Positions 12,362 to 28,700 of a stretch of DNA of 64,000 bases are shown here, piece by piece. The position numbers and the translations under genes are program-made. Under the pieces are notes generated by a model, which was not told where the DNA came from, ran no database searches, and was given only the letters and a program-made list of their open reading frames with translations. Position 1 is the first letter of the stretch. Each line of letters opens with the position of its first letter. Origin of the DNA: Candidatus Eiseniibacteriota bacterium (GTDB lineage Bacteria; Eisenbacteria; RBG-16-71-46); contig OY970342.1 in assembly GCA_963717505.1 (NCBI GenBank), forward strand, positions 928,001 through 992,000, given 5' to 3'.

Positions 12362-13296
12362 TCCGCTCGTTGCTCATCGTTCTCGCCGCACTGCTGCTCG
12401 CCGGCTGTTCGATCAAGAAGATGGCGACCAAGAGCATGGCCGACGCGCTGACCAGCGGACAGGACGTGTTCGGCACCGACAACGATCCCGAGCTGGTGCG
12501 TGACGCGTTGCCGTTCGGACTCAAGACGCTCGAGTCGCTGCTGGCCGAGCTGCCGAACCATCGAGGCCTGTTGTTGTCTGCGTGTCGCGGATTCACGCAA
12601 TACGGCTTCGCGTTCGTCCAGGGCGAGGCGGCCTACGTCGAGGCGCGCGACTACGACCGCGCTCAGGAGATGCGGGCGCGCGCGCTCCAGCTCTACCTGC
12701 GCGCCCGCGGTTATGGACTCCGTGGACTCGAGCTGTCGAATCGCGGGATCAGCGCGGCGCTGCCGGTGAACCCGGATTCCGCGGCGCGCGCGATCAAGCA
12801 GGAGAACCTGGATCTGCTCTACTGGACCGCGGCGTCCTGGGGTGCCGCGATCGGCGTCGGCATGGACCGGCCCGAGCTGACCGCCGACGTCAGCGTGGTC
12901 CGGTCGTTGATGCAGCGCGGCCTCGAGCTTGACGAGACCTACGATGGCGGGGCGTTTCACGAGGCGATGCTGATCCTCGAGTCGGCGCCGGCGGTGATGG
13001 GCGGGTCGATCGCGCGGGCGCGCGAACATTTTGCCCGGGCGGTACAACTTTCAGGTGGACGGAAGGCGAGTCCCTACGTCACGCTGGCCGAGGCGATTTC
13101 GGTCCAGACTCAGGACCGCGCCGAGTTCTCCGCCATGCTGGAGAAAGCGCTGGCGGTCGATCCCGAAGCCGACCCGCCCAATCGGCTGGCCAATATCGTG
13201 GTACAAAAGAAGGCGCGCTGGCTGCTGAGCCGCGCCGACGAGTTGTTCCTGGACTCCCCGGTCGATGCTCCCATCGAGGAAGGTTCGAAACGATGA
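12358..13296 (+). CDS. TRAP transporter TatT-family TPR-like lipoprotein
   Basis: Lipobox LLAGC; DNDPELVRDALPFGLKTLESLL; GGSIARAREHF; directly upstream of a DctP gene; ATGA overlap with ETF-QO. Confidence 0.85.
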   Translation: MIRSLLIVLAALLLAGCSIKKMATKSMADALTSGQDVFGTDNDPELVRDALPFGLKTLESLLAELPNHRGLLLSACRGFTQYGFAFVQGEAAYVEARDYDRAQEMRARALQLYLRARGYGLRGLELSNRGISAALPVNPDSAARAIKQENLDLLYWTAASWGAAIGVGMDRPELTADVSVVRSLMQRGLELDETYDGGAFHEAMLILESAPAVMGGSIARAREHFARAVQLSGGRKASPYVTLAEAISVQTQDRAEFSAMLEKALAVDPEADPPNRLANIVVQKKARWLLSRADELFLDSPVDAPIEEGSKR

Positions 13297-14321
13297 AACG
13301 ATGGAACGCGATACACACGATGACCGCACTGTTGGCGCTGCCGCTCGCCGGGGTACCGGCGCCCGCCGCCGCCCAGGAGCAAGTCGTCAAGCTCGCGACG
13401 CTGGTGCCCGAAGGATCGGTGTGGCACAAGGCGCTGCGTGACCTCGGCGACGGCTGGAACCGCGGCACCACCGCCCGCGTCGCGTTGCGCATCTATCCCG
13501 GAGGCGTTGCGGGCGACGAGCCCGACATGGTGCGCAAGATGCGGATCGGGCAGATCCAGGCGGCGGCGCTGACCATCACCGGCCTGGCCGAGATCGATCC
13601 GGCGTTCGACGTATTCGGCATCCCGATGATGTTCGACTCGTATCCCGAGCTGTTCTACGTGCTGGACAAGATGGAGCCGGTGCTGCGACAGCGTCTCGAC
13701 GAGAAGGGCTTCGTGCTGCTCAACTGGGGGCACGGCGGCTGGGTCTACTTCTTCAGCAAGCAGCCGATCCAGTCACTCGCCGACCTCAAGAAGGTCAAGA
13801 TGTTCGTCTGGGCTGGGGACGATCGCAGCGTCCAGATATGGAAGGCCGTCGGCTTCCAGCCGGTGGCGCTGGCCGCAACCGACATCCTTCCCGGTCTCAA
13901 CACCGGCATGATCGACGCCCTGCCCACCACGCCGCTCGCGGCGGCGGCACTCCAGTGGTTTCGGCAGACCCCGTACATGGCCGACGTCGGGCTCGGCCCG
14001 CTGGTCGGCGGCCTGATCATGACCAAGGCCGCCTGGAAGAAGATCTCCGAAGCCGACCGCGCAGCGATCCAGAAGGTGTGCAAGTCGACCGAGGCGCGCC
14101 TGATGCGTGAAGTGCCCGCACAGGATTCGACCTCGGTGCGCGAGATGCAGGCGCGCTCGCTCAAGGTCACCAAGATCCCGGCCGCGGACCAGCCGGCATG
14201 GCGCAAGCTCGCCGACGACTACGGCGCTCGCATGGAGGGCACGGTTCCCGCCGAAATCATGGCCCTCGCGCTGCGCGAACGCGACGCATTCCGCAAGCAG
14301 GCTGCGGCGGGCGGACACTGA
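13293..14321 (+). CDS. dctP: TRAP transporter substrate-binding protein (DctP/TatP)
   Basis: KLATLVPEGSVW, YPGGVAGDEPDMVRKMRIGQ; signal peptide. Confidence 0.9.
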   Translation: MKRWNAIHTMTALLALPLAGVPAPAAAQEQVVKLATLVPEGSVWHKALRDLGDGWNRGTTARVALRIYPGGVAGDEPDMVRKMRIGQIQAAALTITGLAEIDPAFDVFGIPMMFDSYPELFYVLDKMEPVLRQRLDEKGFVLLNWGHGGWVYFFSKQPIQSLADLKKVKMFVWAGDDRSVQIWKAVGFQPVALAATDILPGLNTGMIDALPTTPLAAAALQWFRQTPYMADVGLGPLVGGLIMTKAAWKKISEADRAAIQKVCKSTEARLMREVPAQDSTSVREMQARSLKVTKIPAADQPAWRKLADDYGARMEGTVPAEIMALALRERDAFRKQAAAGGH

Positions 14322-14366
14322 CCGCGCCGCCCAGCCCGTGACCGTCCCGCCCGCGACACTCGAACG

Positions 14367-16160
14367 TTGAAACACCTCGGCCGCCTCGAAGCCTGGATCG
14401 CGAGTCTTGCGCTCGCGGCCATGGTCCTCCTGCCGCTCGCGGAGATCGTCGCGCGACAGGTGTTCGACATCGGGATTCCGGGATCGGGCCCGTTCGTCCA
14501 ACATTTGACGCTGTGGGTCGGCTTCCTGGGCGCCGCGATCGCCGCGCGCGAGGGTCGTCTGCTCACGCTCGCGACCACCGAGTACCTGCCCGAGGGCTTC
14601 TGGCGACGCGCGGCGCACACCGTGTCGTCGATGGTCGCGGCGGCGATCACCGCGCTGCTCGCGCGCGCCTCGCTCCAGCTGGTCCTGGTCGAGCGCGACT
14701 CGGGAACCATGGTCGCCATGGTTCCGGCCTGGATCGCGCAGCTCGTGTTGCCGCTGTCGTTCGCGCTGATCGCGCTGCGGCTGGTGTGGCGGGCCGGCAA
14801 CACCTGGGCGCCGCGCGTGCTGGCGGCACTCGGACTGATCGGGGGCGTCGCACTCGGGCAGTACCCGCAGGTGATGGAGTCGATTCCGTCCTGGCCCGGG
14901 CTGGTCGTCGTGTTGGTCGGCTCGGCGCTCGGCGGACCGATCTTCACCATGCTCGGCGGCGTCGCGGTGCTGCTGTTCATGAAGGACGGCGTGCCGATCG
15001 CGGCCATGCCGGTCGAGACCTACCGGCTCGCAGTGTCGCCCACGCTCGCGGCGATCCCGCTGTTCACACTCACCGGCTATCTGTTGTCGGAGAGCCGAGC
15101 GTCCGAGCGGCTGGTCGCGGTGTTCCGCGCGTTTTTCGGCTGGTTCCCGGGCGGCACCGCGGTGGTGGTCGCCGTGGTGTGCGCGTTCTTCACCGCGTTC
15201 ACCGGCGGCTCGGGCGTCACCATCCTGGCGCTCGGCGCACTGCTCTACCAGGCGCTCCAGCAGGACCGCTATCGCGACCGGTTCTCTCTCGGACTGTTGA
15301 CCGCGTGCGGCTCGCTCGGGCTGCTGTTCCCGCCGTCGCTGCCGCTGATCCTCTACGGCATCGTCGCCCAGATCCCGATCGAGGATCTATTCATCGCCGG
15401 CATCCTGCCCGGGTTTCTGTTGCTCGCGATGGTGGCGTTCTGGGGCGCCCGCGAAGGCATGGTCACCGGCGCCGGCCGGCAGACGTTCCGCTGGGACGAG
15501 GCGGTGCGCTCGCTGCGTGGCGCCGCGTTCGAGCTGATGATGCCGGTGGTCGTGTTGATCGCGATCTTCGGCGGCTTCGCGACCATCGTCGAAGCCTCGG
15601 CGCTCACTGCGCTCTATGCGTTCGTCGTCCAGGTGTTCGTCAAGCGCGATCTGTCGCTGACCCGCGACATCCCGCGGGTGTTCGCGCATTCGGTGCTGCT
15701 GATCGGCGGCGTCCTGGTGATCCTCGGCGTGGCGATGGGACTCAGCAGCTACATGGTCGACGCCCAGATCCCGGCGCGGCTGGTCGAGTGGACGCGGGAA
15801 CGGGTGCACTCGCCGCTGATGTTCCTGCTCGCGCTCAACGTGTTCCTGCTGATCGTCGGCTGCCTGATCGACATCTTCTCGGCGACCGTGGTGGTGGTGC
15901 CGTTGATCGTGCCGCTCGGGATGGTGTTCGGCATCCACCCGGTCCACCTCGGCATCATCTTCGTCGCCAATCTCGAGCTGGGCTACCTGACGCCGCCGGT
16001 CGGCCTCAACTTGTTCTTGTCGTCGTACCGCTTCCACAAGCCGGTGCTCGAGGTCGCGCGCGCTTCGATGCCGATGCTGCTCATCCTCGGGATCGGCGTG
16101 CTGGTGATCACCTACCTGCCGTGGCTGACCACCGGGCTGCTATCGCTGCTCGGGCGCTAA
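14367..16160 (+). CDS. TRAP transporter fused small/large permease (DctQM)
   Basis: N-terminal DctQ-like 4-TM region (LWVGFLGAAIA), then DctM motifs AIPLF, GLLFPPS, TPPVGLNLF. Confidence 0.9.
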   Translation: MKHLGRLEAWIASLALAAMVLLPLAEIVARQVFDIGIPGSGPFVQHLTLWVGFLGAAIAAREGRLLTLATTEYLPEGFWRRAAHTVSSMVAAAITALLARASLQLVLVERDSGTMVAMVPAWIAQLVLPLSFALIALRLVWRAGNTWAPRVLAALGLIGGVALGQYPQVMESIPSWPGLVVVLVGSALGGPIFTMLGGVAVLLFMKDGVPIAAMPVETYRLAVSPTLAAIPLFTLTGYLLSESRASERLVAVFRAFFGWFPGGTAVVVAVVCAFFTAFTGGSGVTILALGALLYQALQQDRYRDRFSLGLLTACGSLGLLFPPSLPLILYGIVAQIPIEDLFIAGILPGFLLLAMVAFWGAREGMVTGAGRQTFRWDEAVRSLRGAAFELMMPVVVLIAIFGGFATIVEASALTALYAFVVQVFVKRDLSLTRDIPRVFAHSVLLIGGVLVILGVAMGLSSYMVDAQIPARLVEWTRERVHSPLMFLLALNVFLLIVGCLIDIFSATVVVVPLIVPLGMVFGIHPVHLGIIFVANLELGYLTPPVGLNLFLSSYRFHKPVLEVARASMPMLLILGIGVLVITYLPWLTTGLLSLLGR

Positions 16161-16164
16161 CAGC

Positions 16165-17775
16165 CTAGAAGGTCCAGCTCAGTCCCGCGTATTCCTGGTG
16201 CGTGGTCACCGCACCACCGTGCGTGCGTTCGTAGCTGAGCGACAGATACCAGAGGGCGCCCATCGCGAGGTCAACGTCGGCGCTCTCCCACACGGCGTGC
16301 TCCTCGAGTCCCGTGACCTGCTCGCGGGTATTGCGGGCGCCACCGGCGAATTCCAGGTGCATTCCGGTCATCGGGTCGGCGCCCAATCCGACCGACACCA
16401 GGTTCGACGACGTGATCGAGCCGTCCGCCATTCCGCCGCGCAGCCGAAGCGTGGCCATGAGTGACGTCACCCGCATCAGCTCGATCGTACCGGTCGCCGA
16501 CTGGGTTCGATCGTCCGCGTCCGTGCCATGTGCGCGACCCTCGGCAGAGAGGCGCAGGTGCCGGTTGGCGCGCACCGAGACTCCGAGCCAGCCGCCCCGG
16601 CGGTACCGATCGTCAAACGCGTCCTCGGGCGTGTAGCGATCCCACCAGAGCCTGACGTTGCGACGCGCGTCGTAGCCGGCAGACAGCTCGACCGGCTTGG
16701 AGATCGTGATTCGTCCCAGTACGAACGTGCTGGTGAGCGAGACGGCCGGCTCTCCGGCCGCGCGCTTCCAGCCGCGAGCCACGTCCACTTCCTGCGATCC
16801 GGAAAGGAACCAGCGCTCGTCGGACAGGAAGCCGTGGACGAAGGCGAAATCACGATTCGGATTGCCCCCGTGGTACGAAGACACGGCACCGGTGCTCACC
16901 GCCCAACGTCGTCGCCCCGCCGGAGCCGGACCGGATCGCCACTCCACGCCCGCGCCGTGCTGCATGATCTCGCTCGATATCTTGAGCGTCACCGGATCGG
17001 GCTGTAGTCCCCCGAACAGACGGACCGACATGCGCGACAACCGGAATTCTCCGAGCGCCCCGTCGAACAGATTGACCGCCGAGAAGCCGTCAGTGCGCTG
17101 CCGGCCGAGCGTCAGGTTCCAGCGGGAGCGCGGGTCGTGCAGGGTCCCCGACAGGCGATAGACGCGTGCCAGACTCCGTTCTCCATCCGCGGGATTCCCT
17201 CCTACGAAGGTCCTGCGACTGCGCACATCGGCGCTGAAGTCCAGTCGTCGGGCGGGATCAATGCGATCGACGCGCAAGTCGAGCGCCGGCTGTGCGTAAC
17301 CCATCCCGGTGCCTCCCTGAACCGCGAGCATCCGCAACCCGGCACGCCCGCGCAGTCCCTGAATCACCCGCCCCGAGGGAACCACCGGCGTCGCGCGGCC
17401 CTGCGCGGGCATCGCGCTCGTCGGCGGCACCTCGGGGCTGATGGGCCCCGCGGCCACGGGCGGCGGCGCTTCATGCGGTGTGAAACGGACGACGTCACCG
17501 ACGATCGGGAAGACCCGGACGTTGAACGTGTCGCAGGATGCCCGTTGCGAAGACAGGAACGACACCCTCAGGTTCGCAATCACGGCCCCACCACGGACGA
17601 CCTCCAGCGAATCCCCGGCCAGGAGGCCGTCGACCCGGCCGGCATTGACGTACACCGAGCCCCCCGCGAGGTAGGACACCTGGGTCGAGCGGGTCGCGGC
17701 CGATGCCGCCGCGGCCCCGAGCGCGATCAGGATGCCGGCCACCGCCGCAATCGAGAGGGTGCACTGCCGGGGCAT
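16165..17775 (-). CDS. Putative outer-membrane beta-barrel (cytochrome-associated porin) with a small N-terminal periplasmic domain
   Basis: Start MPRQCTLSIAAV overlaps the upstream stop (TGATG); signal peptide; SVYVNAGRVDGLLAGDSLEV domain; Pro-rich linker; amphipathic strands; C-terminal beta-signal YAGLSWTF. Confidence 0.75.
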   Translation of the reverse strand: MPRQCTLSIAAVAGILIALGAAAASAATRSTQVSYLAGGSVYVNAGRVDGLLAGDSLEVVRGGAVIANLRVSFLSSQRASCDTFNVRVFPIVGDVVRFTPHEAPPPVAAGPISPEVPPTSAMPAQGRATPVVPSGRVIQGLRGRAGLRMLAVQGGTGMGYAQPALDLRVDRIDPARRLDFSADVRSRRTFVGGNPADGERSLARVYRLSGTLHDPRSRWNLTLGRQRTDGFSAVNLFDGALGEFRLSRMSVRLFGGLQPDPVTLKISSEIMQHGAGVEWRSGPAPAGRRRWAVSTGAVSSYHGGNPNRDFAFVHGFLSDERWFLSGSQEVDVARGWKRAAGEPAVSLTSTFVLGRITISKPVELSAGYDARRNVRLWWDRYTPEDAFDDRYRRGGWLGVSVRANRHLRLSAEGRAHGTDADDRTQSATGTIELMRVTSLMATLRLRGGMADGSITSSNLVSVGLGADPMTGMHLEFAGGARNTREQVTGLEEHAVWESADVDLAMGALWYLSLSYERTHGGAVTTHQEYAGLSWTF

Positions 17776-19301
17776 CAGCTCCGACCCCGCGGATGGCACG
17801 AGAAGCACGCATTGCTTTCGTATTGGTATCCCGACTCGCCGTTGTGATCGCCATCGGTTTTGGCGCGATCGCTGTGCGGATGACAGGTCAAACAGGTGAA
17901 CACCGAGAGGTTGGTCGGGTTGGTGTGACAGTCGGAGCAGGCGTCCCATTTTCCATTGTGCGCTCCGCTGTGGATCGGGAAGAAGTTCGTGTCGTGGTCG
18001 AACGTCGCGCCGGTCCAGGTCACGGTCGAGTGACAGGTGACGCAGTCGGTGTTGAATCCGGCCGCGGCATGCGCTGGGTTCGTCGTGCCGTCGTAGTCCG
18101 CCCGATGGCACGAGATGCACGCCGCGCTCTTCCCCTGGTAGACCCCGTCGCCGTGGCAGCTCGCGCACACCGCAGCCTGATGGGCCCCGGTCAGCGGGAA
18201 GCCGGTCATGGAATGGTCGAACACGGCTCCGCCCCAGGTGATCGTCGAGTGACAGGTCATGCAGTTCGTGCTGAACCCGGCGGATCGGTGGACCGGATCG
18301 GAGGTTCCATCGTAGTCCGCTTGGTGACAAGACACGCATGCGGTGCTCTTGCCGTCGTAGACGCCGTCGCCGTGGCAACTCATGCACGCTGCCGATTGGT
18401 GGGCGCCGGTCAGCGGGAACGCGGTCAACGAATGATCGAATGGACTTCCGCCCCAGGCGGTCGTGGTGTGGCAGGTGATGCAGTTGGTGCTGAACCCCGC
18501 CGAGCGGTGCTCCGGATCGGTGGTTCGGTCGTAGTCCTCCTGGTGACAGGACACGCACGCCGTGTTCTTTCCATTGTAGACACCATCTCCGTGACAGCTC
18601 ATGCACGCCACGGATCGATGGGCGCCACTCAGCGGGAACGCGGTCAAGGAGTGATCGAAGGTCGCGGTCTTCCACCCGATGGAGTTGTGGCAGGTCGCGC
18701 ACTCGGTCGGGAACCCGCCGCCCCGGTGATCCGGGGTGCGCGCCGCGTCGTAGTCCTTCATGTGACAGCTCTGGCAGTCGGCCTGCGTATTCAGGAACTG
18801 CATCTGACCCTGGGCTGCCGGCGGGTGGCAGGTCTCGCAATCCAGGGTCGCGTGGAAGCCGGTGAGCGGGAACGCCGTGAGCTGGTGCGCCTGGACCATG
18901 GGCGCGCGATCCACGAAGCTGCGGGAACCGTGGCAGCGCGCACAATCGGTGCCGAACTCGCCCAGGTGCGGATCCTCGTGGCAGGAGGCGCACCGGGGCT
19001 CGGTCCGGCGGAACTCGAGACTCGAATGGCACGAGCGGCAGTCGGCGGCGGCGTGAGCGCCCGCCAACTCGAATCCGAACTTCCCGTGGTCGAACTTGGG
19101 GCTGATCTTCGCCGGCTTCCAGGCGTTGGCCTCGTGACAGAGCGCACAATCCTCGCGGAAGTCGCCGTGGGGGTTGTTGTCCTTCGCCCGATCGGCGGCC
19201 AGCGCCGCCATCGCCAACGCCGCGAGCGGCGTCAACACAACCGCAGCAATCGCAAAGCGGCCCCACGTCCGGCGACGTTGATTGTCAGTGCGCGGAATCA
19301 T
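17775..19301 (-). CDS. Multiheme cytochrome c, 19 CxxCH motifs
   Basis: 19 CxxCH counted; signal peptide; recurrent FDH..T.FPL.GAH distal-His motif. Confidence 0.93.
   Translation of the reverse strand: MIPRTDNQRRRTWGRFAIAAVVLTPLAALAMAALAADRAKDNNPHGDFREDCALCHEANAWKPAKISPKFDHGKFGFELAGAHAAADCRSCHSSLEFRRTEPRCASCHEDPHLGEFGTDCARCHGSRSFVDRAPMVQAHQLTAFPLTGFHATLDCETCHPPAAQGQMQFLNTQADCQSCHMKDYDAARTPDHRGGGFPTECATCHNSIGWKTATFDHSLTAFPLSGAHRSVACMSCHGDGVYNGKNTACVSCHQEDYDRTTDPEHRSAGFSTNCITCHTTTAWGGSPFDHSLTAFPLTGAHQSAACMSCHGDGVYDGKSTACVSCHQADYDGTSDPVHRSAGFSTNCMTCHSTITWGGAVFDHSMTGFPLTGAHQAAVCASCHGDGVYQGKSAACISCHRADYDGTTNPAHAAAGFNTDCVTCHSTVTWTGATFDHDTNFFPIHSGAHNGKWDACSDCHTNPTNLSVFTCLTCHPHSDRAKTDGDHNGESGYQYESNACFSCHPRGRS
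18003..18659 (-). repeat. Three tandem 219-bp (73-aa) tri-heme repeat units
   Basis: The FDH codons recur with ends at about 18659, 18440, 18221 and 18002; unit FDHS.T.FPL.GAH..A.CxSCHGDGVY.GK..ACxSCH..DYD.T..P.H..AGF.T.CxTCH.T..W.G. Confidence 0.9.
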
Positions 19302-21174
19302 GGGCAGACGCCTCTCGGGTGGTCAGCATTAGAGCGAATTCCCGTCGCGGGGATCTGAGCATCATCCCAGACTTCTTCTCTTCGGGCACGTTCTTCCCGT
19401 GACAGCTCTCGCACTCGTGGGGAACCGGACGCCAGATCACGAGCGGTCCCTTCGCCGTCTGTTCCGTGCGATGACACGACAGGCACGGTGTGCGGGCATG
19501 TTCGCCTTCGAGTTTGAAGGAGGAGTGCCGGTTGTGATCGAACCGTGACGCGGGCGCGAACGCATCGTTGTCGTGACAGCCCTCGCAAGCGCCCCGGTCT
19601 TTACGACCCTTGAACTGGCCGGCGTGGACGTCCTCGTGGCACTCGGTGCAACGGGCGCGCTTCTGGGTGAAGGGCAGGGTCCGGCCGTGCGCGGCGCGCA
19701 GGGTCGAAGCGGCAGCCGTCGCCTTGAGCTCGGCGTGGCACGCCTGACATGGCACGGCCGCGTGCGCGCCCTCGAGCGGGAAGGCGTAGGCGGCGTGGGC
19801 CGCGACGTCCACGGCCGAGGGCCGGAACCGATGCACATCGTGACAGGACAAGCAGGCCTCTTGGGCACCGCGGGCGGTTGCAAAACGCCCGGCGTGCGGG
19901 TCACGGTGACAATCGACGCACTTCTCATGCCCGGGGCGCATGCGGACACGCGCCGGGCCCAGGGTGGCGGCCTCCGCGGCGTTGCCGCGTGCATGGCACA
20001 GGCGGCATTCGGTCTCGACGTGCGCCCCCTCCAGTGGATAGCGGGTAGCGCGATGACTGGCCACGGTGAACGAAGAGTGCTCGAAGGTCGCGACGGTGTG
20101 ACAGGTCGCGCAGTCGGCCGGCTTCCCGACGATCTGGCCCTGCCCGGCGTGCTGGTCCTTGTGGCATGAACCGCAGGTTGCGAACGGCGGCTTGGCCCCC
20201 CAAGCGCGCTTCGTGTCGTGACAGTCGGCGCATGCGACCTCGGCGTGCTTCCCTTTGAGCGGGTATCGCGTCAGGTCGTGATCGAATCCCTTTTCGTTGA
20301 TCACCGCGAATCCCTTGGTCGAGTGGCAGTCCGAGCAGGCGGTCCCGAATCGACCCTGATGTACGTCGCGGTGGCAGGAGCTGCATTCGGCGTGGGGCAC
20401 CGGCCGGTAGCGCGCGTCTTCGGTGAGCTTGGGTGCGTGAGCGGCGGCCATGCCGCTGGCCGCAGTTCGGGTGCGGGTTCGCTGGCCTTCGGCCGCGACC
20501 ACCTGGACTCCCGCAGGGGGATGGCACTTGGCACACTCGACGTCGACGTGCTTGCCGGTGAGCGCGAAGCGGGATTGATCGTGGTCGAACTTCGCCGCCG
20601 GACTCCAACCGTCGAGCCCGTGGCAGGTCTCGCACTTCGACCCTACCTGGCTGCGATGCACGTCTTTGTGACACGAGACGCAATCGGTCTCGAGGGCGAG
20701 CCAGCTCTCGGTATGGTTCTCGACCCGGAGCTTCCCGGAGAGCGGTAGTCGCTGGTACTTCGGTTCGTGACAGGTTCTGCACTCGACCTTGGCGTGCTTG
20801 CCCTCGAGCGGCCAGCCGGCTTCGTTGTGGTCGAAGGCCTCGAGTCCGGCCTTGCCCCAGGACACCAGGTCGAAGTCGCGCCCGGCGTGATCGGGATGGC
20901 AGCTCGCGCAGGCCTGGTCGGCGACCTTGGCATGGTACCCGCGATTCGCGCTCCTCATGGTCGCGATCTCGGTGTGACAAGCGAGGCAGTTCGCGTCCAT
21001 CGTCGACTTGCGCCCGGGCGCGACGTGGCACTTGAAGCAGTCGAGCGAGCCGTCGAGGCTGCGATGCGCATGGGCGAGCGGGCCGGGCGAGATCTGGCCC
21101 GCGGCCGGTGCCGCCCACGCGGAGACTCCGACCAGCAGCACCGCCCGCAGGAATCCGTCACGATGCCACCTCAC
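19285..21174 (-). CDS. Multiheme cytochrome c, 20 CxxCH motifs
   Basis: 20 CxxCH counted; signal peptide then QISPGPLAHAH; degenerate tri-heme repeats with PLEGKH/GAH. Confidence 0.93.
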   Translation of the reverse strand: MRWHRDGFLRAVLLVGVSAWAAPAAGQISPGPLAHAHRSLDGSLDCFKCHVAPGRKSTMDANCLACHTEIATMRSANRGYHAKVADQACASCHPDHAGRDFDLVSWGKAGLEAFDHNEAGWPLEGKHAKVECRTCHEPKYQRLPLSGKLRVENHTESWLALETDCVSCHKDVHRSQVGSKCETCHGLDGWSPAAKFDHDQSRFALTGKHVDVECAKCHPPAGVQVVAAEGQRTRTRTAASGMAAAHAPKLTEDARYRPVPHAECSSCHRDVHQGRFGTACSDCHSTKGFAVINEKGFDHDLTRYPLKGKHAEVACADCHDTKRAWGAKPPFATCGSCHKDQHAGQGQIVGKPADCATCHTVATFEHSSFTVASHRATRYPLEGAHVETECRLCHARGNAAEAATLGPARVRMRPGHEKCVDCHRDPHAGRFATARGAQEACLSCHDVHRFRPSAVDVAAHAAYAFPLEGAHAAVPCQACHAELKATAAASTLRAAHGRTLPFTQKRARCTECHEDVHAGQFKGRKDRGACEGCHDNDAFAPASRFDHNRHSSFKLEGEHARTPCLSCHRTEQTAKGPLVIWRPVPHECESCHGKNVPEEKKSGMMLRSPRREFALMLTTREASAHDSAH

Positions 21175-22610
21175 GACACCGCGGCCGCTTCATGCGTCGC
21201 CGGTTCCAGCGCGATTTCCTTGCGCACGATGCGGACTCCCATCCGCTGCAGAAACGGGTAGGGGGCTTCCCCCCCGATGCGAACGATGACAAAGTCATTG
21301 GGTTGCTCGTACGGAGCGCCATTCTGCTCCAGGATCACCGAATGAGGTCGGATCTCTCGTACCTGGGTACCGAGCAGGAGCTGGATCCGCTTCTGCTCGA
21401 CTGCGGCCTTGAGCTTGGCCTGATTGCGCTCCTTCAGCCGCGAGAACTCGGTTCCGCGATACGAGAGGCTGACGGTCGTGCCCTTCTGGTTCGCGAGCCC
21501 GAGCGCCGACTCGATCGCGCTGTCGCCGCCCCCGACCACCAGCATCGACTGTCCGGCGAACGCCTCCATCTCGATGATGTCGTAGAGCACCTTTTCGGAA
21601 TCCTCGCCGGGCACCCCCAGACGCCGCGGCGTCCCGCGCCGGCCCATGGCGAGCACCACAGTGCGCGAACGGACCTCGCGGTCGGCGGTCGAGACCCGGA
21701 ACATCTCGCCGTCGCGCTCCACGCGCTCGATTCGGTGACCGGTGTTCACGATCAGGCCGGTCTTGGCGATGACCGTCTTCCACACGGCCAGCAGCTCTTC
21801 CTTCGAGCCGTCCGCCACCCACAAATCGCCGTACAGGGGCATGCGCACCGGCTCGGCGAACAGCAGCTTCTTGCGCGGGTACTTGTTGATCGTGTCCGAG
21901 ATCGCCCCCTGCTCCACCACCAGGTAGTGAAGCCCGGATCTCAGGGCCTCGAGACCGGCGCTCAGTCCTGCAGGGCCCGCACCCACGACCACGATGTCGT
22001 AGGCGTGCACGTCGCGATCCCGCCGCGGTTGACTGGGTGGCAGGAGACGAGCGATGTGCTCGACCGCGAGCTTGCCCTCGTTGACCGCGTTCTTGATCAG
22101 CCCGCGACCGCCGAGCTCGCCGACCACGTAGAGCCCGCGAACGTTGGTCTGAAAGTGCGCATCGACATAGGGCACCTCGAGGCGTTGCACCGCCGCACCC
22201 GCGGTGACCACCACCGCGCCTACCGGACATGCGGCTTTGCAGCTCGCGTGGCCCTTGCACAAGTCCAGATTCACGGTGGCGAGCTTGTTCACCATCACGA
22301 TGGCCCCTGGCTCCGGGCAGGCGTCGACGCAGGTGCCGCAGCCCACGCACAGATCCGATCGCACCACGGCGTGGAGCGGCCCCGAGGCCTCGGGCTCGGG
22401 GCCGTCGGCGACGATTGGCGCCAGGACCAGATCGTACGCCTGCATCGGCGCGTTGCATCGGGGGCAGGCCGAAGCATCGGGGGCCACCATGGTCTTGCAC
22501 CGGGGGCAGGGCATGCCGGCGTTGCGGCCGGAGCCGCGCTGTCGCATGTGGAGCACGGCCAGCAGCACCGTGATTCCGGCGAATGCGATCGTTGTTATGA
22601 GCATGGTCAC
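21171..22610 (-). CDS. Membrane-anchored 4Fe-4S dicluster / FAD-NAD(P)H oxidoreductase (TrxB/YpdA-like)
   Basis: N-terminal TM; CPRC-x10-CPRC; CVGCGTCVDACP and CKGHASCKAACP; VVGAGPAG; VVGGGDSAIE; no catalytic CxxC. Confidence 0.88.
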   Translation of the reverse strand: MTMLITTIAFAGITVLLAVLHMRQRGSGRNAGMPCPRCKTMVAPDASACPRCNAPMQAYDLVLAPIVADGPEPEASGPLHAVVRSDLCVGCGTCVDACPEPGAIVMVNKLATVNLDLCKGHASCKAACPVGAVVVTAGAAVQRLEVPYVDAHFQTNVRGLYVVGELGGRGLIKNAVNEGKLAVEHIARLLPPSQPRRDRDVHAYDIVVVGAGPAGLSAGLEALRSGLHYLVVEQGAISDTINKYPRKKLLFAEPVRMPLYGDLWVADGSKEELLAVWKTVIAKTGLIVNTGHRIERVERDGEMFRVSTADREVRSRTVVLAMGRRGTPRRLGVPGEDSEKVLYDIIEMEAFAGQSMLVVGGGDSAIESALGLANQKGTTVSLSYRGTEFSRLKERNQAKLKAAVEQKRIQLLLGTQVREIRPHSVILEQNGAPYEQPNDFVIVRIGGEAPYPFLQRMGVRIVRKEIALEPATHEAAAVS

Positions 22611-22620
22611 GAGCGAATCC

Positions 22621-23592
22621 TCAAGACCCGACGGCGCCCATCAGCACCGCGACCACCACGTGGATCAATATCGCGACCAGCGCGGTGATGGCCACCGGAC
22701 GATGTGCCACGTGCCAGAGCGCGAACAGTCGCCGGGTGGCTTCGAAAGCGCGGATCTGGTGGGCCAGAGTCATCTCCCGCCGAGCGAGACGGGTCACTTC
22801 CACGAGCTGACCGTGATCGAGCGCCTTGCGTCCCGGACCGGGCCGTGCGAACCGCTTGGTCAGGTGCCTCACCGCGCGCCAGCGGGTGAAATCGCTGGTG
22901 ACCAGCAGGATCAACGCGCGGCCCGTGCCCAATCGCGACGTCGGCGCAGGATCCAACACCAGCATCTGCTCCACGTCCGAGGGGAGCAGCCCGGTGGTGG
23001 CGGCGATCCGGGTGACGATGGCACGTCGCTCGTTCGAAGCGTCCTCGAGCGTGAGTTCGAGACCGGCCTGGCTGCGCGGAATGCGTACGTAGAGATAGCG
23101 GCCGACGATGCCGCTCAGGACCACGAGCATCATCGCCAGGAAACCGAGGCCGATCAGCCCCTCGAACCGCCAGCCGGCATGAACCGCAACCAGCCCCGGC
23201 AGGGCGAGCCCGGCAACCGTGTGGACGCGCATCCACGAGGGCAGCTTCCCGGTCCACGCCAGCCAGCGGAACTTCTTGCGCAGCGGGTAGAGCCACATGA
23301 ACAGGAAGAAGGCGAAGCCCACGATCCCGAACGAGAGTCCGACCGAGCCGCCCGGCTTGAGCAGGGCGTGCACCGGGTCTCGGACACGCTCACTGCGCTC
23401 GGCCACGTAGTAGTGGAGCCAAACCAGCGACAGGGCCGCCGGAATCGCCAGGAGGACGAGCAGCGACCACCGATCGGCCGTCTCGGAGCGTTGAGCCGGC
23501 GCCACCAGCTTGGGTTTTGCGGACACGACCGGGGGCCGGCCAGGGGGCGGGAACGCAGCCCTTGGCCTGCCCGAAGCAGGTGCCTGTTGCAT
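22621..23592 (-). CDS. Polytopic membrane protein, putative di-heme b (ferric-reductase-like TM domain)
   Basis: Several TM helices with His at WMRVHTVAG, VAVHAG, WHVAHRP, ILIHVV; LYPLRKK and SGIVGRYLY motifs. Start uncertain. Confidence 0.7.
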   Translation of the reverse strand: MQQAPASGRPRAAFPPPGRPPVVSAKPKLVAPAQRSETADRWSLLVLLAIPAALSLVWLHYYVAERSERVRDPVHALLKPGGSVGLSFGIVGFAFFLFMWLYPLRKKFRWLAWTGKLPSWMRVHTVAGLALPGLVAVHAGWRFEGLIGLGFLAMMLVVLSGIVGRYLYVRIPRSQAGLELTLEDASNERRAIVTRIAATTGLLPSDVEQMLVLDPAPTSRLGTGRALILLVTSDFTRWRAVRHLTKRFARPGPGRKALDHGQLVEVTRLARREMTLAHQIRAFEATRRLFALWHVAHRPVAITALVAILIHVVVAVLMGAVGS

Positions 23593-23681
23593 GATGCAAC
23601 GCTCCGTATCGCGGTTTGCGAGGGAAACACACGGAGAAACCTGGCCCGCAGCCATTGAGGGACGGGGGTAGGCCAGGTCCT

Positions 23682-23697
23682 TGCAGAACAGGTGCCA
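23682..23697 (-). promoter_or_regulatory. Sigma54 (-24/-12) promoter of the multiheme operon
   Basis: Minus strand TGGCACCTGTTCTGCA versus consensus TGGCACG-N4-TTGCW; GG and GC exactly spaced; about 90 bp upstream of the first gene. Confidence 0.65.
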
Positions 23698-25730: not shown

Positions 25731-28700
25731 ATGACCCAAGCACCGACCCATCCTGAACCCCGCCGCAGCACCCCTTTTCCCTGGCGCCCGGTGCTTACCG
25801 TCCTCCTGGTCCCCGTGGTGCTGGTCGTGGTCCTGGTGGCCGCGCTCCACACGCCGTGGGGCATGAAGACGGTCGCTAATCAGGCTTTGCGGGCGGTGCC
25901 CCTGTGGCCCGAGACGCGGCTCGAGGCCGCCGCCGCCCGCGGCGGGTTTGGCTCGGGCATCGAGCTCTACGGCATCCGCCTGATCGCGCCCAACGGACCT
26001 TTGGCGGGCGTCATCGACACGCTGCGCGTGAGCTACCAACTGCACGAGCTGTTGGGAAACCCGAGGCGCGTACGCGAGATCCGGATCGCCGGACTTCAGT
26101 TGCTGGCGAGCCGGCTGCCGCGCGCGGTGGCCAAGGATCGCAAGTCGCGCGCCGACCGCCGGCCGCCGCAGGTCACCCTGGACCGGCTCGAGCTGCATCG
26201 CACCGATCTCGAAATTCACGTTTCATCGTTCGGACGCGACTCGGTGCTGCTCGTCAAGGGACTCGATCTGACGATGACCGATTTTCGGTTGCACGAGTCG
26301 ACCTCGCTCGCGCTCGACACGCTGAGCGCGACCCTGGTGTCGCCCGCCGCCCCGGCCGAGTCCTTGCGCCTCGCGATGCGCGGGCGCCTGACACCGACGC
26401 GCCTCGAGCTCGATACATTGTCGATTGCCGGGGTGCGCACCCGAGTCACCGGTGCGGGAACGCTGCCGGTGAAGGGTGGCGAGGGCGCGAGTTTCGTGGG
26501 CGCGGACTTCAGCCTATACGCCCGGCCGCTCGCCGGCGCCGACATCGAGCGCTTCCTTCCGTTCCTGGGCAATCCGGGCGACCTGACGCTCGGCATGGTC
26601 GCCCGCAGCCGGGGCTCGCGGCTGCACGCCACGGTCGACGCGCGCGCCGCGCGCGGCGGCCACGTCGCACTAGAAGCGACGGTGGCGGCTGCTGGCGGTC
26701 CGATTTCGCTGCACACAGACGGGCGTGTGGATGATCTCGATCTCGGCGCACTTCGGGGCGGAGCGGCCGACAGCTTGGTGATCGACGCCTCGTGGCGGGC
26801 GGAGTTGGATGGGCCGGACCGCGCACACCTTTCGGGCCCGATCGCGCTGACCCTCGATGGGTCGCGCGTCGGCGACCTGCGGTTCGACGAAGCCCGAATC
26901 GAGGGCGCACTCGCCGACCGTCGCGCAACCGTGAACGCGCGCGCCCGCGGCGAGGGTTTCGCACTGACCGTCGCCGGCTGGGCGACCCCGCTCGACTCGA
27001 TCGTCGCCTACGACGCCTCGGCGGTTCTTTCCCTCGCGCGCGTCCCGTATCCACCGAGGTCGCCTTTCTCGCCGCCACCCGATTCGCTGGCGGACTCGAC
27101 GACGTTGTTCGCGGGTGATACCGAGATTCAAATCAGGGGCCGCGGCCTCTCGGCGGATCGTGCGCAGACGATTGCGACCCTCGAGCTGCGTCCGGATTCG
27201 ACCACGCCGTCGCTGTTGGGCGCCGGCCGGGTCGCAGCCAACCTCGATGCGGGGGTCGCGCGCTGGCGAGTCGACCTGCAGGCCACATCGGGTTCGATCC
27301 GTGCCAGCGGTGATTTTGGCCTGTCGCCCGAGCTATCGTATCGGATTCATCGCGCCGAGATCGCCGGCGTCGACATCGCAGCGTTCGCCGGCGACACCAC
27401 CGCGAGCCGGCTCGACCTCGTGCTGCGTGCCGAGGGCCGTGGCGCGGAGCCCGATCGGATTCGGGCGACCGCCGTGATCGATTCCCTGGCGCTGGCTTAC
27501 GGGATCCATCGGATCGCCGGCGGCACCGCCACGGTGAACCTGGATCGCGGGCGCGCGCGATTCGAGAGTGCGGTCACCGTGGACCAGGCAACCGTCCAGG
27601 CGAGCGGCACGCTCGAGCCCCTGAGCCAACCCAAAGCCGCGCGCATCGCGTTCGATGTTCGCGACCTCGATCTGGCCAAAGTCACCGGAGACTCCCTGCT
27701 CACGAGCCAGCTCGCCGGCCACGTTCGAGCCGAGCTGCGCGGGTCCGATCTCGCCGCGTGGCTCGGGACACCGACGCGGAATGCAGCGATCGAGTCCGGG
27801 CGCGGCCTGGTGCGAATCGAGCTCGAACCATCGTCGGTCGGCGATCAGCACATCGCGGTCTTCGACCTGCGCGGCGACCTCGAGCGCGGCACCGTGAAGC
27901 TCGGGGGGCGACTCGAGTCCTCGTTCGGCGAGGTGCGACTCGCCGGGACCGCACGTCCGTTCGATGCGGTTCCGACGCTGCGGCTCACCCCGCTCGCCTT
28001 CTCGTCGTTCTCGCCCCTGCTGTTGGTCGGCCGCCCGGACCCCGCGCTCGAATTCGAAGGCCGGCTCGACGCCGAATTGTCGGGACGGAGTCTCGCCGAG
28101 CTCAGCGGCAACCTCGATCTCGTGCTCGACGGGTCGCGGGTGAACTCGATGACCTTCGATCAGCTCGCCGTTCATTCGCGCATGGGCGAAGGGACCATCG
28201 AGACCCACCTCACTGCGCGCGCCGCGGATGATTCGGCCGACGTGGCGTTGATCGGCGCGCCGTTCCTGGATCCGCGTCGCTTGCACGCCGCCGGACGGAT
28301 TCGGTCGGTCGGCCTGGCCTCTATGTTGGGCATCGATTCGGTCCGTGCCGGCGCCGGCCTCGAGTTCACCTTCGACGGCCGTCAACCGCGGGGCGGTGGC
28401 GTGGACGATCTCGTACTTTCGGGGTCGGTGGCGGGTAACGCTTGGCTGGGCGAGGCGCGCCTCGACACGGTTGCGGGCGAGTTCAACGTCGAGCACGGCG
28501 TTGCGCAGGTGCCTCGTCTCGCGTTGCGCGGCAACGTGCTGAATGCCGACGGTGGCGGCCGGGTGGTGCTGCCGCGATCCCGGTCGCGCGAGGCCACGGA
28601 CGTTCGCCTCACGGGAACGCTGGACCGCATTGAACTGCTGCCTCCCCTCCCTGGGATCAAGGAACTGGCGGGGAGCGCCCGGATTCAGGTGGCCGCTTCG

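Follow-up and report, generated by a model that had tools for sequence, protein, structure and literature searches.

A candidate PCC3-type electron conduit with a conserved flavoprotein gene in an Eiseniibacteriota genome

The five genes and their products

We analysed a stretch of 64,000 nucleotides from a Candidatus Eiseniibacteriota bacterium (contig OY970342.1, positions 928,001 to 992,000; this whole stretch is called the window below) and, within it, a group of five minus-strand genes which may together encode an electron conduit spanning the cell envelope. In reading order, these genes specify a membrane protein (22621-23592, 323 residues), a flavoprotein (21171-22610, 479 residues), a 20-heme c-type cytochrome called here cytA (19285-21174, 629 residues), a 19-heme c-type cytochrome called cytB (17775-19301, 508 residues) and an outer-membrane barrel protein (16165-17775, 536 residues). 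The genes are co-oriented, with a gap of 10 nucleotides between those of the membrane protein and the flavoprotein and with overlaps of 4, 17 and 1 nucleotides at the following junctions. There are 39 CxxCH motifs, 20 of them in cytA and 19 in cytB, while the membrane protein, the flavoprotein and the barrel protein have none. This arrangement and this number of motifs had already been reported by a first-pass annotation of the window, and the coordinates and motif counts bear them out. The start of the membrane-protein gene was placed at 23592, since GGAG lies about 10 nucleotides upstream and the resulting length agrees with that of a homolog of 325 residues (P0002); an alternative start is found at 23655. 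We scanned the entire genome (4,162,540 bp) for stop-to-stop frames of at least 80 residues: only eight of them contain three or more CxxCH motifs, and the frames of cytA and cytB are the largest. This excludes chance and means that the heme load is real and concentrated at the operon.

The membrane protein passes the cut-off of no Pfam or NCBIfam family. Its structural model (predicted local distance difference test, pLDDT, 78.9) contains five helices, at residues 35-57, 83-106, 117-138, 145-168 and 260-322. Three motifs are invariant in all of the 19 members which we aligned, namely W120-x3-H124-x13-H138, S160-G161-x2-G164 and W293-x3-H297-x13-H311, and both the model and a hydrophobicity scan map them to helices 3, 4 and 5. 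A helical insert of about 120 residues, rich in Arg and Lys, separates helices 4 and 5 and shares its side of the membrane with the basic N-terminus; on the grounds of hydrophobicity and of positive-inside charges, this side is taken to be the cytoplasm. The model thus predicts one histidine pair near each face of the membrane, which is the arrangement of two-heme cytochromes b. Matches below threshold point to the same kind of protein: among the 19 family members, 14 match Ferric_reduct, 8 match DUF4405 and 6 match Ni_hydr_CYTB, three families which we take to belong to one Pfam clan. The protein of the window has no match of its own to Ferric_reduct (PF01794), for which the best relative reaches an E-value of 0.0024, below the threshold; it does have the two HX13H pairs.

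The family of this membrane protein is large and almost without names. At least 1215 homologs are present in a collection clustered at 90% identity, and in the 120 which were listed no Pfam domain was recognised and the only name to appear is "hypothetical protein". When clusters at 50% identity were searched with its profile, 2649 of their representatives were retrieved at E<=1e-3; at the stricter limits of 1e-10 and 1e-30, the numbers were 1557 and 242. Twenty distant relatives are annotated only as "hypothetical protein", the organisms named being Calditrichaceae, Krumholzibacteria, Fidelibacterota and Schekmanbacteria; judging by the titles and sources of the records, the family is found in soil, sediment and groundwater lineages which are rarely cultured. 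A search for longer forms of the protein gave two matches, P0272 and P0273. In P0272 the alignment to the membrane protein breaks off at residue 246, after which it runs on with cytA, signal peptide included, so that P0272 was rejected as a frameshift merge. P0304 (863 residues) was likewise set aside as a merge: it consists of the N-terminal part of the membrane protein and of a flavoprotein with its own N-terminal helix, with ends out of register. Another relative, P0337 (742 residues), has an unexplained N-terminal extension of 488 residues which has no Pfam match at E<=0.001.

The flavoprotein is composed, in this order, of an N-terminal transmembrane helix, a zinc ribbon (CPRC...CPRC), a ferredoxin domain of the 2x[4Fe-4S] type and a two-Rossmann domain for FAD and NAD(P)H which resembles thioredoxin reductase; its Pfam matches are Pyr_redox_3 (E 6e-43) and Fer4_10 (E 1.5e-7). 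The ferredoxin domain carries the motif CxxCxxCxxxCP and then CxxHxxCxxxCP, an invariant histidine replacing one cysteine in the second cluster motif. In an alignment of 29 sequences, C88, C94, C98, C118, H121, C124, C128 and R385 are invariant, as are GxGPAG and GGGDSA, the motifs for FAD and for NAD(P)H respectively, and C91, Y384 and R391 are nearly invariant. The only hydrophobic helix of the protein covers residues 1-19 and is followed by RQRGSGR. A helix at the N-terminus followed by basic residues indicates that the bulk of the flavoprotein faces the cytoplasm. The translation contains 11 cysteines, all of them in the zinc ribbon and in the ferredoxin domain. Hence the flavin domain, which has no cysteine, cannot be a disulfide reductase. 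The closest solved relatives are 7a76 (E 6.7e-35), YpdA/Bdr 7a7b (E 3.9e-29) and ferredoxin-NADP reductases of the thioredoxin reductase (TrxR) type. We rejected an assignment to the bacillithiol disulfide reductase YpdA/Bdr (TIGR04018), for which the protein scores 176.7 bits against a cut-off of 339.9: YpdA/Bdr has its catalytic cysteine in the FAD-binding loop, and the loop here reads GAGPAG, its alanine being nearly invariant. A ferredoxin domain fused to a domain resembling ferredoxin-NADP reductase is what one would expect an adaptor from NAD(P)H to one-electron carriers to look like. When the complex of the flavoprotein with residues 34-323 of the membrane protein, two hemes and two 4Fe-4S clusters was predicted, the interface score ipSAE was 0.00 in both runs.

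Both cytochromes have a signal peptide and match families of the c7/c3 type (Cytochrome_C7 with E 1.1e-25 for cytA), and all their cysteines, 40 out of 40 in cytA and 38 out of 38 in cytB, lie within CxxCH motifs. CytA has 31.4 residues per heme and 33 histidines outside the motifs; the corresponding values for cytB are 26.7 and 21. These additional histidines are enough for bis-histidine ligation throughout. No solved relative was found by sequence for either protein, the lone match of cytA (E 0.007) being at chance level, and neither translation, judged by eye, shows a lipoprotein signal. In cytB, residues 215-433 form three tandem repeats of 73 residues with three hemes each. The homologs of cytA in related loci have mostly 20 or 23 CxxCH motifs, and those of cytB have from 10 to 58 across the 80 loci compared below; part of this range climbs in threes (13, 16, 19, 22, 25, 28), which agrees with the triheme repeat. 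We propose that cytA, which its signal peptide would direct to the periplasm, is a wire spanning this compartment, and that cytB is a wire which threads the barrel or lies at the surface. Other frames rich in CxxCH motifs were encountered in related loci. One distant cluster, L101 (11768-17944), includes an open reading frame of 2058 residues with 85 motifs in frame, and another, L105 (905-5893), includes a frame with 68. Two loci of Gemmatimonadales (L044, L059) have more multiheme frames 0.4-7.9 kb upstream, with 8, 18 and 16 motifs, and five other loci of this group (L050, L062, L077, L078, L080) have, at about 3.4-5.3 kb upstream, a pair on the opposite strand with 4 and 5 motifs.

The barrel protein begins with a signal peptide-like sequence and ends in ...LSWTF, the last residue, F536, being invariant in all 31 aligned sequences. 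Its model (pLDDT 78.5) shows a small beta domain (29-98), a disordered Pro-rich linker (104-138) and a barrel (141-535) for which 22 strands are listed by DSSP. Its N-terminus, its last residue and its strands uphold the first-pass assignment of the last open reading frame as a barrel. A Foldseek search with the model returned outer-membrane barrels, the PapC usher (8.2e-9), OmpM1 and Occ porins among them, and no Pfam or NCBIfam family passes its cut-off for this protein. From standard barrel geometry, we estimate a backbone diameter near 40 Å. TonB-dependent receptors, which also have 22 strands, enclose a plug domain, so that room for a slim heme chain inside the barrel is plausible. Motifs and models favour the anatomy which the first-pass annotation had drawn for the inner and outer modules. 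The putative enzyme with sites for Fe-S clusters, FAD and NAD(P)H would face the cytoplasm, the four invariant histidines of the membrane protein are placed as in two-heme cytochromes b, and two probable heme wires and a predicted barrel complete the set.

Conservation of the gene set and genome context

We scanned one genome per species for relatives of the membrane protein; 259 of the 284 candidate stretches encode one, and the best 80 loci were compared in detail. According to their record titles, 39 of these 80 loci belong to Gemmatimonadota, 28 to Eisenbacteria, 6 to "uncultured bacterium", 2 to Krumholzibacteriota, 2 to Acidobacteriota and 3 to other labels. By tblastn, the flavoprotein was found in 77 of them, cytA in 76, cytB in 75 and the barrel protein in 57, the misses being mostly at contig ends. 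In the 44 loci which are well flanked (at least 9 kb downstream and at least 3 kb upstream), cytA is present 43 times, the flavoprotein 42 times, and cytB and the barrel protein 41 times each. All five genes are together in 39 of these 44 loci, the exceptions being L013, L042, L049, L054 and L070; homologous clusters, whose existence the first-pass annotation had thought possible, do therefore occur elsewhere.

The position of the flavoprotein gene relative to the membrane-protein gene could be compared at 76 loci: in 50 the two are on one strand with the flavoprotein gene second, in 25 this gene is found just upstream in divergent orientation, and in one it lies elsewhere. In a distant set of 13 loci, where the membrane protein is only 27-36% identical, the flavoprotein gene is in the cluster 11 times, adjacent to the membrane-protein gene in 9 loci and directly after the barrel gene in 2 (L101 and L105), and the gene orders vary. 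The other two distant loci are on contigs of 3.3 and 6.3 kb, and there the flavoprotein gene is at the edge of another contig. Hence co-localisation outlasts the shuffling of gene order, and it is chiefly this which speaks for a joint function of flavoprotein and membrane protein. Clusters of the Eisenbacteria type were also seen in three metagenome-assembled genomes (MAGs) labelled Hyphomicrobiales (L010), Bacteroidota (L079) and Actinomycetes (L054). The class searched around the genome of L010, with at least 71 matches out of 205, holds genomes of the Eisenbacteria type; as it also holds the genome of L079 and many strong matches, at least the labels Hyphomicrobiales and Bacteroidota look wrong.

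Heme maturation had been named as a point to check in the genome: matches to CcmC/F-type proteins and to CcmE, which belong to Ccm system I, are found at 2.752 Mb, and ResB (system II) has no match in this genome, rated 86.7% complete. The match to the CcmC type (2752035-2752461), like that to rpoN (3872746-3873223), is split across adjacent frames. These splits, together with a completeness of 86.7% for a single contig of 4.16 Mb, suggest indel errors of the assembly and not broken genes. In a listing of sequencing runs, none with RNA was given as holding this genome, and the highest share among DNA runs was 0.23.

The same genome encodes a second conduit at 1000681-1004866 (L109:6681-10866), about 8.6 kb past the end of the window. 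It consists of a decaheme cytochrome of the MtrA/DmsE family (TIGR03508, 258.9 bits for a cut-off of 192.2) directly followed by a barrel of the MtrB/PioB family (TIGR03509, 205.6 bits for a cut-off of 240) and, about 450 bp beyond the barrel, of an NrfH/NapC-like cytochrome of 209 residues. A pair of the MtrA/MtrB type accompanied by a NapC/NrfH-like cytochrome means that a conduit of the quinol type exists apart from the five-gene operon.

A sigma54-type -24/-12 promoter-like motif, TGGCACctgttCTGCA (23682-23697, minus strand), is located in the gap of 157 bp upstream of the membrane-protein gene. When both strands were scanned with the sigma54 consensus, it was the sole site of the window to fit the strict pattern, and rpoN is found in the same genome. 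The strict pattern occurs at none of the 77 related loci, and the looser TGGCAY-N5-TTGCC occurs at 5 of them. Of the sigma54-type promoter announced by the first-pass annotation there remains a plausible single match, and not a conserved feature. Between 15800 and 24000, a sigma-70 scan gave no promoter-like site and a terminator scan gave one terminator-like site, on the wrong strand. The flanking genes are unrelated to the cluster. A TRAP transporter (DctP and fused DctQM; 13293-16160, plus strand) lies downstream in convergent orientation, and a TamB homolog of 1709 residues (25731-30860, plus strand) lies upstream; both look ordinary, and a gene for a TPR membrane protein is also upstream. 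The presence of TamB near the operon is consistent with an outer membrane.

A proposed path for electrons and its alternatives

Considering the domains, motifs, topology, models and conservation together with the genome context and with the fit to PCC3, a type of cluster compared in the last section, we favour the reading that the five genes form an operon for a PCC3-type conduit through the envelope, whose inner entry is like a two-component NADPH oxidase or ferric reductase and which sends electrons outward. We give this reading a probability of roughly 0.6. In such a conduit, the flavoprotein, tethered to the membrane, would have its FAD reduced by NAD(P)H in the cytoplasm, and its two Fe-S clusters would hand the electrons on one at a time. 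The flavoprotein would dock on the cytoplasmic helical insert of the membrane protein, in which two b-hemes may carry the electron across the membrane, one bound by H124 and H297 near the cytoplasm and the other by H138 and H311 near the periplasm. As far as motifs, models and conservation can indicate, cytA would then bridge the periplasm and cytB would thread the 22-strand barrel or sit on it. An acceptor outside the cell would finally be reduced; it could for instance be a mineral of Fe(III) or Mn(IV), humic matter or another cell acting as partner.

The conserved flavoprotein hints that the chain is fed from NAD(P)H and not from quinol, and independence from quinones would follow from synteny only. 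We also infer the binding of heme b, the contact between the flavoprotein and the membrane protein, the exposure of cytB at the surface and the nature of the electron donor. The outward direction is favoured because it is downhill from about -320 mV and is aided by a membrane potential which is negative inside. As the cluster has no visible proton-pumping part and the export would be assisted by the potential, it is likely to be an electron sink (redox balancing) or to serve the reductive dissolution of minerals, rather than an energy-conserving respiration.

Several observations weigh against this reading. Foldseek, run against the Protein Data Bank with the model of the membrane protein, gave nothing at E<=0.001, and in a wide VIA search the best Z of this model, 8.4, is within the background. 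Two-heme proteins do not rise above this background in the same search, be it the E. coli cytochrome b561 CybB (5oc0), with a Z of 7.1, or the designed bundle 7ah0, with 6.9. The presence of heme b is deduced from the spacing of histidines, and no Pfam model of a two-heme cytochrome passes its cut-off. No genuine fusion of the membrane protein to the flavoprotein was found among the longer relatives, so that there is no Rosetta-stone evidence for their association. Two Gemmatimonadaceae genomes, G208 (locus L049) and G209 (locus L048), hold a homolog of the flavoprotein which tblastn did not find within their fetched loci, and one Krumholzibacteriota copy of the flavoprotein gene is broken up among three frames. 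The barrel, with 22 strands, is narrower than that of MtrB, which has 26, although a cytochrome could plausibly fit inside. Exporting electrons would dissipate the membrane potential and therefore cost energy. The members of this cluster type are known from sequence prediction, and PCC3 has been termed "functionally unverified" (10.1101/2025.02.27.639646). He et al. modelled its membrane protein as quinone-reactive (PMC5566968), and a quinone site would be compatible with our data.

This last model leads to a different account of the operon, which we consider unlikely: it would be a classic PCC3, in which a quinone-reactive cytochrome b lets electrons pass between the heme wires and the quinone pool, whichever way they flow, and in which the flavoprotein is an accessory. 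Such an accessory could be a maintenance reductase or a minor second input of electrons, comparable to that of the MsrQ-Fre pair. E. coli MsrQ reportedly takes electrons both from quinol and from the flavin reductase Fre. A quinone-reactive role is exactly what was proposed for the membrane proteins of PCC3 and PCC4 (PMC5566968), and the weak signal of Ni_hydr_CYTB, a quinone-reactive family, in 6 of 19 members goes in the same direction, as do the two genomes whose flavoprotein gene escaped tblastn at the locus. However, a dispensable accessory is hard to square with a gene which is kept in 42 of the 44 well-flanked loci and in 11 of the 13 distant ones. Moreover, the MtrAB-type conduit of the same genome has its own NapC/NrfH-like candidate for a quinol dehydrogenase, and no quinone-site motif turned up in the membrane protein, where no search aimed at one was made.

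Less probable again is an uptake of electrons, which would pass from an outside donor (Fe(II), Mn(II), reduced humics or a cathode) through the membrane protein to the quinone pool or to the flavoprotein and NAD(P)+. Heme wires conduct both ways; PCC3 has been found in neutrophilic Fe(II) oxidisers and discussed for them (PMC5566968; PMC9900912), and Sideroxydans CL21, while oxidising iron, had a raised level of the membrane-protein gene from one of its PCC3 copies (10.1101/2025.02.27.639646). Energetics argue in the opposite sense: NAD(P)+, at about -320 mV, is uphill from donors of the Fe(II) type, the inside-negative membrane potential opposes the inward flow and the gene content of the cluster includes no energy-coupling subunit. 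For ordinary donors, the reversible operation suggested by the first-pass annotation is therefore energetically unlikely. Finally, the cytochromes could be buffers or reductases for a soluble substrate in the periplasm and the barrel an ordinary porin, which would suit the solved folds closest to the barrel (ushers and Occ porins, not MtrB) and the lack, by eye, of a lipoprotein signal on both cytochromes. We regard this as very improbable, since the barrel gene is kept in 41 of the 44 well-flanked loci, its family matches no solute-porin family in Pfam or NCBIfam, and the cytochrome encoded next to it reaches 58 hemes among the 80 loci and 85 CxxCH motifs in L101, which is much longer than the periplasm requires.

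If the reading of an NAD(P)H-fed outward conduit is correct for this operon, one may tentatively ask whether it extends to its whole class, an extension which we hold to be possible but rather doubtful: PCC3-type conduits generally would then be outward wires fed by NAD(P)H, made of an NADPH oxidase/ferric-reductase module and tens of c-hemes, driven by the membrane potential and bypassing the quinone pool, in thousands of sequence clusters from many phyla. To our knowledge, the characterised routes of extracellular electron transfer in diderm bacteria all begin at the quinone pool. If a route began at NAD(P)H instead, the effective redox potential which the cell presents at its surface would be different, and lower, and the reduction of metals or humics would be uncoupled from respiration. 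The PCC3 genes, which are now taken in metagenomes as markers of iron oxidation, would have to be read differently, and this would concern a large family, with the 2649 cluster representatives retrieved for the membrane protein (50% identity, E<=1e-3).

Comparison with known systems

As proposed here, the operon would share with MtrCAB of Shewanella and with MtoAB and PioAB of Sideroxydans and Rhodopseudomonas the concept of a multiheme cytochrome sheathed by a barrel and accompanied by a surface cytochrome. It differs from them in its sequences, as the first-pass annotation had judged by eye: the model TIGR03508, whose cut-off is 192.2, gives 44.9 bits for cytA and 28.0 for cytB, and the barrel protein has no NCBIfam match at E<=0.1, MtrB/PioB (TIGR03509) included. 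The second conduit of the same genome served as a positive control for these models, reaching 258.9 bits with TIGR03508 and 205.6 with TIGR03509. The operon differs from them also in its dimensions, with 20 and 19 hemes here instead of 10 and 22 predicted strands instead of the 26 of MtrB. Mtr draws on quinol through CymA. The models available for the Geobacter Pcc/Ext clusters remain far below threshold (24.2 bits against 325 for the GSU2203 decaheme, about 23 against 200 for ExtN/ExtO), and we know of no Omb/Oma models in the libraries.

The Hmc and Tmc complexes of sulfate reducers join a multiheme cytochrome of the periplasm to an Fe-S protein of the cytoplasm by way of a membrane cytochrome b, which recalls the inner part of the present operon. 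Their cytoplasmic partner is however HdrD-like and not a flavoprotein, they have no outer-membrane part, and the HmcA model gives only 39.5 and 48.4 bits here for a cut-off of 400. Another likeness in layout would be that to NADPH oxidases (NOX) and ferric reductases (FRD, PF01794) and to MsrQ-Fre, where electrons go from cytoplasmic NAD(P)H to a flavin, then to two bis-histidine b-hemes and to an acceptor outside; NOX and ferric reductases also have the HX13H spacing on two helices. The flavoprotein of the window is a separate protein, of the TrxR type and with an Fe-S ferredoxin domain, whereas NOX has a fused domain of the ferredoxin-NADP reductase (FNR) type. The acceptor would here be a heme wire, and not O2 or a periplasmic enzyme.

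PCC3 was defined from sequence alone by He, Barco, Emerson and Roden in 2017 as a porin, two cytochromes and a membrane protein of about 300 residues, with medians of 21 hemes for the periplasmic cytochrome and 34 for the extracellular one, which is rich in repeats (PMC5566968). The membrane protein of PCC3 and PCC4 has five helices, with WX3HX13H on the third and fifth and SGXXG on the fourth, and was likened to the ferric-reductase domain (PMC5566968). In Gallionellaceae, the periplasmic cytochrome has 21, 24 or 27 hemes and the extracellular one 10-35 (PMC9900912). The membrane protein of the window, with its 323 residues, matches the published signature residue for residue. One cytochrome has a stable count (20 here, mostly 20 or 23 in homologs), to be compared with about 21 and with the Gallionellaceae values; the other is variable and built of repeats (19 here, 10-58 in homologs), like the one which is extracellular there by prediction. 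A gene for a porin-like barrel belongs to the cluster, in 41 of the 44 well-flanked loci, and, like PCC3, the cluster is so far a matter of sequence alone. Signature, gene content and heme counts therefore fit an operon of the PCC3 type, the proteobacterial proteins having been compared by their description only.

Two differences are to be noted. The hosts, according to record titles, are Eisenbacteria, Gemmatimonadota and their allies and not Proteobacteria, and the operon has a conserved gene for an Fe-S flavoprotein, which the four-gene description of PCC3 does not include. The terms FAD, ferredoxin and flavo- are absent from the main text of He et al. (PMC5566968), whose supplements may show neighbouring genes. 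Our literature search for a porin-cytochrome conduit fed by a flavoprotein turned up only a passing remark, in a 2026 survey of karst: in one group with 11 porin-cytochrome clusters, 7 have ferredoxin-NADP reductase genes as neighbours, "suggesting potential functional coupling" (PMC13264449). The MAG SAR286, listed there with such a cluster (PMC13264449), bears the isolate name found in the record title of our locus L061. The four cluster types of a peat preprint were rejected as the same system, their cytochromes having 8-13 hemes. The first-pass annotation had known of no characterised counterpart. This stands insofar as the counterparts are known as predictions; it must be amended in that the cluster type is already published as such a prediction, under the name of PCC3, and its flavoprotein partner, which lies outside the PCC3 model, was found in print only as the remark of 2026.

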